Shown here piece after piece: positions 35,045 to 35,839 of a DNA stretch of 64,000 nucleotides. The notes under the pieces are model-generated. The model was not told where the DNA came from. It saw only the letters and a program-made list of their open reading frames with translations, and searched no databases. The translations under genes were made by a program, and so were the position numbers. Position 1 is the stretch's first letter. Every line of letters begins with the position of its first letter. Source of the DNA: Escherichia phage LF82-1; the sequence record PV648359, one strand, 5' to 3'.

Positions 35045-35242
35045 TTAGCAAGAATAACTAGATGATACCCAGCCTTGAACAGTGATACTATTGTGGGATA
35101 ATGAGATCGCGTCCTGGAGATTCAGACCTGCGTTATCTTCAATCCATAATGTAACTTCTTCGCGTTCTTCTGTTGCAATTTGGAACAGGTTTTCCAGAGC
35201 AGCTACTGCCGTACGTACAGCACAATCTAATTCACGAGACAT
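35045..35242 (-). CDS. small protein, member 1 of tandem family ending in GWVSSSYSC
   Basis: 65 aa; conserved C-terminal tail shared with the two upstream paralogs. Confidence 0.5.
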   Translation of the reverse strand: MSRELDCAVRTAVAALENLFQIATEEREEVTLWIEDNAGLNLQDAISLSHNSITVQGWVSSSYSC

Positions 35243-35251
35243 ATGATTTCC

Positions 35252-35524
35252 TTAGCATTCCATAGAAGATGCAACCCAACCACCTGATTCGAGGCTGGTG
35301 TAATATGAGTGTTGGTTGACAGTGGCCCAATTCGGATTGCCTTGTTCGGTATAATGCTCAAGTTCTTTTTTCAAGAATCCAGGAGAATAATACGTTCCAC
35401 CCATACCATAAGCTGGATACAAGTCGAATGTTGTGTTTTGTTTATCAGCAATTTCTTTGGCAGCCTCAATAGCTGCATAGATTTTTGCTACAGCTTCAGC
35501 CAGTTCGGTTTGTTCTTTAGACAT
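35252..35524 (-). CDS. small protein, member 2 of tandem family (ends GGWVASSMEC)
   Basis: 90 aa; shares TYY(S/P)xG core and C-terminal tail with member 3. Confidence 0.55.
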   Translation of the reverse strand: MSKEQTELAEAVAKIYAAIEAAKEIADKQNTTFDLYPAYGMGGTYYSPGFLKKELEHYTEQGNPNWATVNQHSYYTSLESGGWVASSMEC

Positions 35525-35533
35525 AATGATTCC

Positions 35534-35839
35534 TTAGCACAACGCAGAAGATGAAACCCAAGCACCTTCAGTAATAACGTATCCATTACCTTCACGCTTA
35601 ACATCGCCGCCATTATTTTCAATTTCATCTTTCATCCACTGGGATACGATTTCACCCTTAGGATAATAAGTACGACCGCTACCATAATCACCTACAGAAA
35701 ATGATACGGCATATTGGTCTGCGATCTTTGTTGCTTCTTCTTCGATACGTTCAGCTTGATTCAGAAGTTTATAAATTGCATCTGAAGCGGATTTGGCATC
35801 ATTAAACTCTGGTACTTTAATTTCAATAATCTTACTCAT
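35534..35839 (-). CDS. small protein, member 3 of tandem family (ends GAWVSSSALC)
   Basis: 101 aa; conserved junction TGC-TAA-GGAA…ATG between family members. Confidence 0.55.
   Translation of the reverse strand: MSKIIEIKVPEFNDAKSASDAIYKLLNQAERIEEEATKIADQYAVSFSVGDYGSGRTYYPKGEIVSQWMKDEIENNGGDVKREGNGYVITEGAWVSSSALC

Follow-up and report, generated by a model that had tools for sequence, protein, structure and literature searches.

Diversified small phage proteins with a common cysteine-ended tail are encoded next to a putative DUF7277-DUF7275 enzyme

Introduction

Why should three consecutive small genes of a T4-like phage, which differ over most of their length, end in almost the same few residues? 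This question is raised by positions 35,045 to 35,839 of a 64,000-nucleotide stretch of Escherichia phage LF82-1 (sequence record PV648359; the whole stretch is called the window below). An earlier note, made from the sequence alone, had described there three tandem small paralogs with a C-terminal tail of the form G-W-V-(S/A)-S-S-x-x-C and had proposed that this tail is a shared signal for recognition or modification. We report here that the tail is the most visible sign of a real and strongly conserved module, in which one or several such small proteins are encoded together with one larger protein, a putative enzyme composed of DUF7277 and DUF7275. The sequences of this module are already catalogued in two PHROGs and two Pfam DUFs, and their annotations say only "hypothetical" or DUF. 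The module apparently has not been described before: our literature search, which reached few papers in subscription journals, found no description of the tail, the protein family or the module.

Results

Three early genes with one C-terminal ending

The three open reading frames (ORFs), named g1 to g3 from upstream to downstream, lie on the minus strand at the positions and with the tails that the earlier note had given. The features on which the argument rests are the following:

35534..35839, minus strand: g1, small acidic Cys-tail protein of 101 amino acids (aa), RB69ORF139c type, phrog_899, AlphaFold2 (AF2) model with a pLDDT of 90.4; N-terminal helix, ADxY..SF, YGSGRTYYP and tail GAWVSSSALC
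35534..35560, minus strand: tail of g1 (WVSSSALC and stop codon)
35525..35533, minus strand: g1-g2 spacer of 9 nucleotides (nt), GGAATCATT, ribosome-binding site of g2
35252..35524, minus strand: g2, mosaic paralog of g1 with 90 aa, YGMGGTYYSPG and tail GGWVASSMEC
35252..35278, minus strand: tail of g2 (WVASSMEC and stop codon)
35243..35251, minus strand: g2-g3 spacer of 9 nt, GGAAATCAT, ribosome-binding site of g3
35045..35242, minus strand: g3, 65 aa, phrog_4882, N-terminal helix and tail QGWVSSSYSC, no YGxGxTYY core
35045..35071, minus strand: tail of g3 (WVSSSYSC and stop codon)
33758..34714, minus strand: partner gene, 318-aa protein with DUF7277 and DUF7275, corresponding to RB69ORF134c, putative enzyme

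All three are genuine genes from the early region of a T4-like phage (Mosigvirus). Over the 1.7 kb that were tested, the window matches LF82-series Escherichia phages at 100% identity, and its identity to many RB69-like genomes (Mosigvirus, Straboviridae) is 95-98%. In annotated relatives, the same genes are found in an accessory stretch of the early region, with nudE/e.2 on one side and e.3-e.6 on the other and with all genes on the minus strand, and the counterparts RB69ORF136c-139c are labelled "hypothetical protein" in every case.

The proposed origin of all three genes by tandem duplication holds for g1 and g2 and does not extend to g3. The proteins g1 and g2 are homologous (BLASTP, 32% identity, E 5e-7), and both match the C-terminal part of the phrog_899 profile (E 1.3e-22 and 7.3e-19, respectively), while g3 belongs to phrog_4882 (E 7.7e-37). 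In a profile-profile comparison using hhalign, only the last 14 residues of g3 align with the g1/g2 family (probability 64%, E 6.6e-5), so that g3 has the tail alone in common with the other two, within the same layout of a helix followed by the tail. The YG.G.[TS]YY core occurs twice in the six-frame translation, in g1 and g2, as had been noted for two of the three proteins. The junctions read TGC TAA GGAATCATT ATG between g1 and g2 and TGC TAA GGAAATCAT ATG between g2 and g3, and both spacers contain a Shine-Dalgarno-like AAGGA. Each junction is an ordinary ribosome-binding-site spacer. The pattern W.[SAT][ST]...C followed by a stop codon occurs three times in the six-frame translation of the 64-kb window, in g1, g2 and g3 only, and its invariance in homologs (see below) takes the tail far beyond chance.

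The tail defines a very large family of phage proteins

We searched 1.84 billion representative proteins (clusters at 50% identity) with a profile built from 15 g1/g2-type sequences and obtained at least 530 clusters at E<=1e-3 and 33 at E<=1e-10. The matched proteins are nearly all 65-150 aa long, and the match extends through the final residue. A terminal Cys is present in 135 of the best 146 matches, and most of the others carry a single residue behind the Cys and form a coherent ...SSTxxC-N/S/R subgroup; overall, about 7% of the members have one extra residue after the Cys. Among 156 aligned members, the tail is nearly invariant (W(-7) in 155, S(-4) in all 156, S/T(-3) in 155, and S, A or P at -5), and the consensus from N- to C-terminus consists of an amphipathic helix, the segment ..EAExIADExG..F.F..aYGMGGTYYP, a variable D/E-rich stretch of ca. 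10-60 aa and the tail GGWxSSSxxC. The median net charge of these 156 proteins is -7.5, and the terminal Cys is the sole Cys in 101 of them. The family as defined here has W-x-[SAP]-S-[ST]-x-x-C at the extreme C-terminus of proteins of 60-150 aa, a pattern with which g1, g2 and g3 all end.

The earlier note had named absence of the motif from homologs as one observation that would speak against it; instead, the tail is invariant in homologs from many phage lineages. What emerges is a very large, phage-restricted family of small acidic cytoplasmic proteins with the defining tail G-W-x-S-S-S-x-x-C-COOH. Judged from the alignments, this tail is the most conserved and most constrained part of the family and is carried by bodies without detectable homology to each other.

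A constraint on nucleic acid rather than protein, such as a translational-coupling or ribosome-binding-site cassette that was copied along with each gene, would fit the near-identity of the g1 and g2 DNA across tail and junction. However, g3 keeps the tail though no such cassette follows it, and 114 distinct tail-coding DNAs use all six Ser codons, both Cys codons and TAA as well as TGA stops, at loci of 34-59% GC. This variety places the constraint on the protein and not on an RNA or DNA element, and it rules out the cassette. Together with an origin of the tail by chance or as an annotation artefact, against which the restriction of the motif to g1-g3 in six frames also stands, we regard a nucleic-acid-level explanation as practically negligible.

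Known families offered no function. Word-indexed searches with g1-g3 returned only close relatives, all unnamed; scans of Pfam, NCBIfam and PADLOC gave no meaningful match; a profile search of the PDB found only designed helical proteins that match the N-terminal helix; and BFVD contained only uncharacterised members of the family. The AF2 model of g1 combines a helix with a five-stranded arrangement, a fold without a match in the PDB. The lipid-like modification that the earlier note had considered found no support: the sequences begin with hydrophilic helices and show neither a signal peptide nor a lipobox, the Cys is the last residue, CaaX spacing is absent, and no lipid-transfer gene is linked.

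The variable acidic segment of these proteins changes by exchange. The g2 gene is a recombinant in which nt 1 to ~130 are of the type of Mosigvirus JK42 (105/108 nt) and nt ~150 to 273 correspond to an allele from an Enterobacter phage (L016, 131/135 nt) and are only ~60% identical to JK42, with the crossover at the conserved stretch coding for YGMGGTY. This mosaic is consistent with diversifying pressure on the body while the tail stays fixed.

Several further observations concern members of the family. In databases, a number of g1 or g2 copies carry frameshifts and lack the tail (P0002, which is the 71-aa RB69ORF139c of the RB69 reference; P0027, the 75-aa mar005P1_00006; P0006; and P0031), which reflects either sequencing errors or the dispensability of single paralogs. 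Four contigs of uncultured phages (L125, L127, L132 and L134) encode 5-6 Cys-tailed paralogs with loosened tails (GWKNSSSYC, GGWYSSHC, GWEGSAC), and the latter three have one Cys-tailed copy downstream of the enzyme gene (GWQPSAxxC). In T4, the 62-aa protein Tk.1 (L173, 5347-5535, minus strand) has a weak local match of 14 bits, LSFEISSEYGDAETYY against LSFsFsvaYGMGGTYY in the core of the family, but does not end in the Cys tail; the match may reflect distant kinship or chance.

The small genes are linked to a DUF7277-DUF7275 gene

On each of two short, unrelated viral contigs (L025 and L026), a member of the family is followed directly by a protein of ~300 aa that shares long identical strings with the product of the window ORF at 33758-34714 on the minus strand. 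The same order is found in the window, where g1-g3 (35045-35839) lie upstream of this gene on the same strand. Tail ORFs are located upstream in 27 of 30 loci with close relatives of the enzyme, and a hidden Markov model (HMM) of the small family finds matches at 72 of 80 diverse enzyme loci. All 149 matches at the latter are encoded on the strand of the enzyme gene, 146 of them upstream and 3 downstream, with 1-6 copies per locus and a median gap of 9 nt between copies. Six of the eight loci missed by the HMM have divergent tails (...SSWVQSSC, ...NWDSSTC, ...SWMSSSANC, ...DWASSRC, ...DDWDSSSANC and ...GWDSSSC), one has no upstream DNA, and one, L077, is truly devoid of a tail protein. Overall, tail proteins therefore accompany the enzyme gene at ~78 of 79 diverse loci, in 1-6 copies that share its strand and with few exceptions lie upstream of it. 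In the reverse direction, the enzyme gene is located downstream on the same strand at 23 of 24 small-protein loci, and the exception ends at a contig edge. By gene neighbourhood, the linkage is thus near-obligate.

This linkage spans unrelated lineages from fragments of 11 kb to jumbo contigs of 390 kb, comprising T4-like phages, Pseudomonas phages of ~98 kb, rV5-like phages of 150 kb, jumbo contigs of 230-390 kb and a contig with a fragment of a T7-type RNA polymerase. At least 734 of 50,697 phage genome records contain the enzyme gene, including T4-like, rV5-like, jumbo, Pseudomonas, Acinetobacter and Aeromonas phages that serve in therapy research. Among bacterial and archaeal genomes of 185,579 species, a pattern-limited scan found the enzyme motif on 6 contigs of metagenome-assembled genomes (MAGs); the module is phage-restricted, and only virulent phages carry it. 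In T4, no homolog of the module was found at 1-50 kb or at 55-80 kb, which together contain the syntenic e.2/e.3 junction (50-55 kb and 80-169 kb lay outside this search), and its absence from these stretches may be a reason why it escaped study.

A third conserved gene was sought by all-versus-all comparison of the ORFs from 36 diverse loci, and none was found. Only two families, the enzyme with 36/36 and the small family with 32/36, are common to most loci, and the one other cluster of wide occurrence, at 26 loci, consists of an antisense shadow ORF within the enzyme gene. This result bears on a maturation of the tail in the manner of ribosomally synthesised and post-translationally modified peptides (RiPPs), in which Ser would be dehydrated, a thioether formed or the terminus oxidatively decarboxylated to aminovinyl-cysteine (AviCys), with the N-terminal helix as recognition leader. 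Ser(-3)-x-x-Cys(0)-COOH is the AviCys-forming spacing of epidermin, which the tail matches, and several precursor-like genes stand ahead of one putative enzyme, as expected for such a pathway. Yet the two common families and the Pfam scans include no linked dehydratase, cyclase or LanD-type flavoprotein, the confident AF2 model predicts folded domains of 60-150 aa rather than leader-core peptides, and the extra residue after the Cys in some members would block decarboxylation. We consider this explanation very improbable. The same features separate the module from lanthipeptides with AviCys and LanD, which resemble it in the S-x-x-C-COOH end and in multiple precursor-like genes upstream of one enzyme and differ from it by the folded domains found here, the lack of a linked LanB/C/M/D homolog and the tolerance of a residue behind the Cys.

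The partner is probably a catalytic, metal-binding protein

The partner protein scores 266 bits with DUF7275 and 97 bits with DUF7277 in Pfam (cut-off 27). Across 36 diverse homologs, it has about 40 invariant positions that are rich in H, D, E, K, R and C, among them G6 S7, D25 D27, K125 H128, R165, Y172 H174 P175, H194 D195 H198, E240 E241 and E248 R249, as well as K270 V271 C272 within the block ALEKVCTSITSGWFRE. This pattern of conservation is that of a catalytic and probably metal-binding protein.

A more specific hint comes from the N-terminus, where all 80 homologs compared start with hhhGSxAh...(8-16 aa)...DxDhh (IGSRAL...SDWDFI in the window). A start of the form hhhGSxA...DxD is a signature of minimal Pol-beta-type nucleotidyltransferases (NTases). 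It agrees with the Pol-beta-type pattern of hG[GS] and, on the next strand, [DE]h[DE]h, which is short and weak by itself. Two Acinetobacter phage records name the homolog of the partner "putative nucleotidyltransferase", a label that our analyses did not substantiate. In lenient Pfam scans of 14 and 36 partner homologs, the sole match was a weak one to DUF6036 (NTase) with E 0.0049 in 1 of the 36. Profile alignments with hhalign gave E 0.24 for AadA, with SDWDFI aligned on SDIDLLV, and E 0.38 for KNTase, neither of which is significant. Sequence and profile searches of the PDB were empty, NCBIfam and PADLOC contained nothing, and the single-sequence AF2 model (pLDDT 36.8) was too low in confidence to be used. 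The N-terminal GS...DxD motif therefore hints at an NTase, without statistical support.

A sister clade has switched its small partners

Distant DUF7275 proteins from Gordonia, Streptomyces and KVP40-like Vibrio phages (L143-L145 and L147-L172) form a sister clade that retains GS...DxD, K125, H128, H194-D195, H198, E240-E241 and E248-R249, has a shortened N-terminal domain and carries I, A or V at the position of Cys272. None of 26 loci of this clade encodes a Cys-tailed protein. Instead, 26 of 27 contain 1-3 copies of another small family, mostly downstream, with the pattern GGEGQGD..W.VFKI...GWYxSYxGGxYDG...KTITV, which is uncharacterised, has no Pfam match and shows no detectable relation to the Cys-tail family (E 0.2). 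Both clades are thus paired with arrays of small proteins, and DUF7275 enzymes as a class therefore come with small partner arrays. The clade whose partners end in Cys is also the clade with the additional invariant Cys272.

The neighbourhood of the module in the window

Between and around the genes of the module, the following features were recorded:

34743..34994, minus strand: 83-aa ORF (phrog_3723) located between g3 and the DUF7275 gene; contains an H-C-x-x-C-P motif
35899..35927, minus strand: promoter-like site TTTACG-17-TATAAT upstream of g1, consensus match only
35011..35039, minus strand: promoter-like site TTTACA-17-TATAGT just downstream of g3

The number of promoter-like sites in the region is not above that in shuffled sequences, and at the place equivalent to 35011..35039 a rho-independent terminator is annotated in the related phage SA79RD. 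The phrog_3723 ORF is present in annotated T4-like relatives and is not among the families common to the 36 diverse loci; it is specific to T4-like phages and stands outside the conserved module in other lineages.

Upstream of g1, the window and the LF82 phages lack ~240 bp that are present in most Mosigviruses (window 35840-36360 compared to JK42, L001 4137-4849). Two-piece alignments place this gap such that most of e.3 is removed, a stretch of 98 nt without ORF remains upstream of g1, and the window is left with a single 140-aa e.4-like membrane ORF. The JK42 homolog of e.4 (JK42_00136, L001 4475-4849) is labelled "sulfurtransferase", which looks unreliable because the window counterpart at 35938-36360 has no supporting Pfam match and only a weak one to Yip1. 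About 4 kb upstream of the module, at 39903-40057 on the minus strand, the window encodes tRNA-Arg(tct) and tRNA-Met(cat) in the usual T4-like layout, and the DUF7275 module of Gordonia phage Cucurbita likewise adjoins a tRNA cluster.

Discussion

What the tail may do

The explanation that we favour, tentatively and short of calling it probable, is that the tail serves as a common handle that is recognised and most likely covalently acted on by the co-encoded DUF7277-DUF7275 protein. The small proteins and the downstream gene on the same strand would then form a two-part module in which a single partner protein recognises each of one to six diversified small proteins through their common end, while the variable acidic middle of each paralog would give it a target of its own in the infected cell. 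We infer physical recognition of the tail from its conservation on unrelated bodies and from the linkage of the genes, which lends the earlier proposal of a shared signal partial support; the modification part of that proposal, including any chemistry, is speculative. As a substrate, the tail might receive a group on Ser(-4)/Ser(-3), and hydroxyl groups would be the expected acceptors if the N-terminal domain of the partner is an NTase. Alternatively, it might take part in thiol chemistry between the terminal Cys and the clade-specific Cys272. We hold covalent action to be the most likely mode because docking alone hardly accounts for a Cys at the very end or for the invariant Ser-Ser, and because arrays of diversified "substrates" that precede a single enzyme are a design met repeatedly.

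Several observations weigh against this explanation. In the predicted fold, the W-V-S-S stretch lies with good confidence within a beta-strand, a placement at least as suitable for a structural role as for a floppy substrate peptide. The median distance between small gene and enzyme gene is 603 nt over all loci, and in T4-like phages the two are separated by further genes, by a hairpin that resembles a terminator and by a promoter-like site. There are exceptions to the pairing in L077 and to the coincidence of Cys272 with the tail in DSS3_PM1, which has Cys272 and yet the partner family of the sister type. This coincidence is suggestive only, because it goes back essentially to a single deep split and lacks phylogenetic independence. 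Furthermore, the partner has no significant match to families of Pfam, NCBIfam or the PDB besides the two DUFs.

Some of these points would follow directly if the tail were independent of the enzyme, either as an element of structure or oligomerisation (by packing of the Trp and by metal binding or disulfide formation of the Cys) or as a handle for host proteins or targeting, with a gene linkage that stems from a common pathway or from co-inheritance only. The strand position of W-V-S-S, the single terminal Cys of most members, which could pair between subunits, the transcription signals that split the genes in T4-like phages and the one locus with an enzyme but no small protein all agree with such a role. 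It leaves unaccounted for that the linkage persists across unrelated lineages and genome sizes with no other common gene and that the sister enzyme clade switches its partner family as a unit; and the occurrence of the tail on unrelated bodies argues against a purely fold-internal role. We judge independence from the enzyme to be improbable.

The small proteins could instead regulate, inhibit or target the DUF7277-DUF7275 protein non-covalently, in the manner of antitoxins or specificity subunits. Their tail would then plug or dock into the enzyme, possibly by way of a disulfide between the two Cys or of a metal held in common, and would itself stay unmodified. The linkage data suit this arrangement in the same way as the one that we favour; the co-occurrence of Cys272 and the Cys tail by clade, the partial integration of the tail into the predicted fold and the presence of several diversified paralogs per enzyme, as would befit adaptors with different targets, speak for it as well. 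However, up to six regulators for one enzyme would be unusual in a toxin-antitoxin system, bacterial chromosomes, which are the home of such pairs, lack the module (apart from the 6 MAG contigs), single copies are frameshifted in some phages that keep the enzyme gene, and docking alone leaves the invariant Ser-Ser beside the Cys unexplained. On balance, we see such regulators or adaptors as unlikely, if less so than a tail without any relation to the enzyme.

Relation to known systems

In pairs such as GlnD-PII and MNT-HEPN, a Pol-beta-fold NTase nucleotidylylates a small partner protein, and the module resembles them in that one enzyme is found with one or more adjacent small partners. The likeness extends to the start of the partner enzyme, which like that of minimal NTases reads beta-strand-G-S-x-A...D-x-D, and to the invariant hydroxyl residues of the small partners (Ser-Ser; Thr-Tyr-Tyr). 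We rejected membership in toxin-antitoxin systems of the MNT-HEPN or AbiE type in view of the near-absence from the 185,579 species genomes and the lack of matches in PADLOC and NCBIfam.

The MNT-like phage NTases of the NrdC.11 type are reported to make competitor cyclic dinucleotides against TIR-STING (Ho et al., bioRxiv 10.1101/2022.06.09.495361). They are recognised by GS-x-AY[GAN]T-x4-SDxD as catalytic motif and by homology to BCP1, Av-05 and NrdC.11. Like them, the partner enzyme is phage-encoded, has an N-terminal GS...SDxD and is found among accessory or anti-defence early genes. No Cys-tailed partners have been described for the NrdC.11 family (bioRxiv 10.1101/2022.06.09.495361), and the partner was rejected as one of its members on account of different spacing and residues (GSRALHYHGL...16 aa...SDWD) and the lack of detectable homology between the DUF7277/7275 profile and T4 NrdC.11 (hhalign E 0.87). 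The window has an NrdC.11 homolog of its own at 20550-21533 on the minus strand, with 78% identity to T4 NrdC.11.

DsrC/TusE, with a near-terminal Cys, and ThiS, MoaD and ubiquitin-like proteins are small carriers whose C-terminus is handled by a dedicated enzyme. As no more than a lead, the module shares with them a functional extreme C-terminus and, in C272 of the partner, an invariant Cys on the side of the enzyme in the clade with Cys-tailed small proteins. The Cys-tail proteins differ by having neither a GG terminus nor a match to the beta-grasp or DsrC folds, and no E1/ThiF or sulfurtransferase domain is detectable here; membership in the ubiquitin-like/ThiS-MoaD group, which is defined by a beta-grasp fold and a C-terminal Gly-Gly, was rejected. 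The internal proteins of T4 with their capsid-targeting sequence are likewise diversified small phage proteins that carry one short terminal signal for a common machinery. Their signal is N-terminal and not C-terminal, and the tail described here is linked to a non-structural DUF gene and found with very different virion types.

By their defining features, the module falls outside the known systems of enzymes and small proteins that we compared or cannot be assigned to them. An undescribed modification or carrier system, in which an NTase-like or metal enzyme charges, cross-links or otherwise alters the Ser-Ser-x-x-Cys end of small acidic proteins, is a possibility that we regard as rather doubtful. 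It would be a viral counterpart, in logic and with unrelated folds, to E1-Ubl, sulfur-relay and GlnD-PII systems, and the modified proteins would act on differing host targets such as defence systems.

Significance

Where small proteins form a diversifying array and are paired almost obligatorily with one enzyme, this is the signature of a system of substrates, or of adaptors, and their enzyme. Here such a system can be tested directly, since it comprises three small genes and one enzyme gene of an E. coli phage that can be cultivated. A chemical modification of the tail would represent a new post-translational chemistry, and if the small proteins are adaptors or inhibitors, they would be candidates for functions in host takeover or anti-defence.

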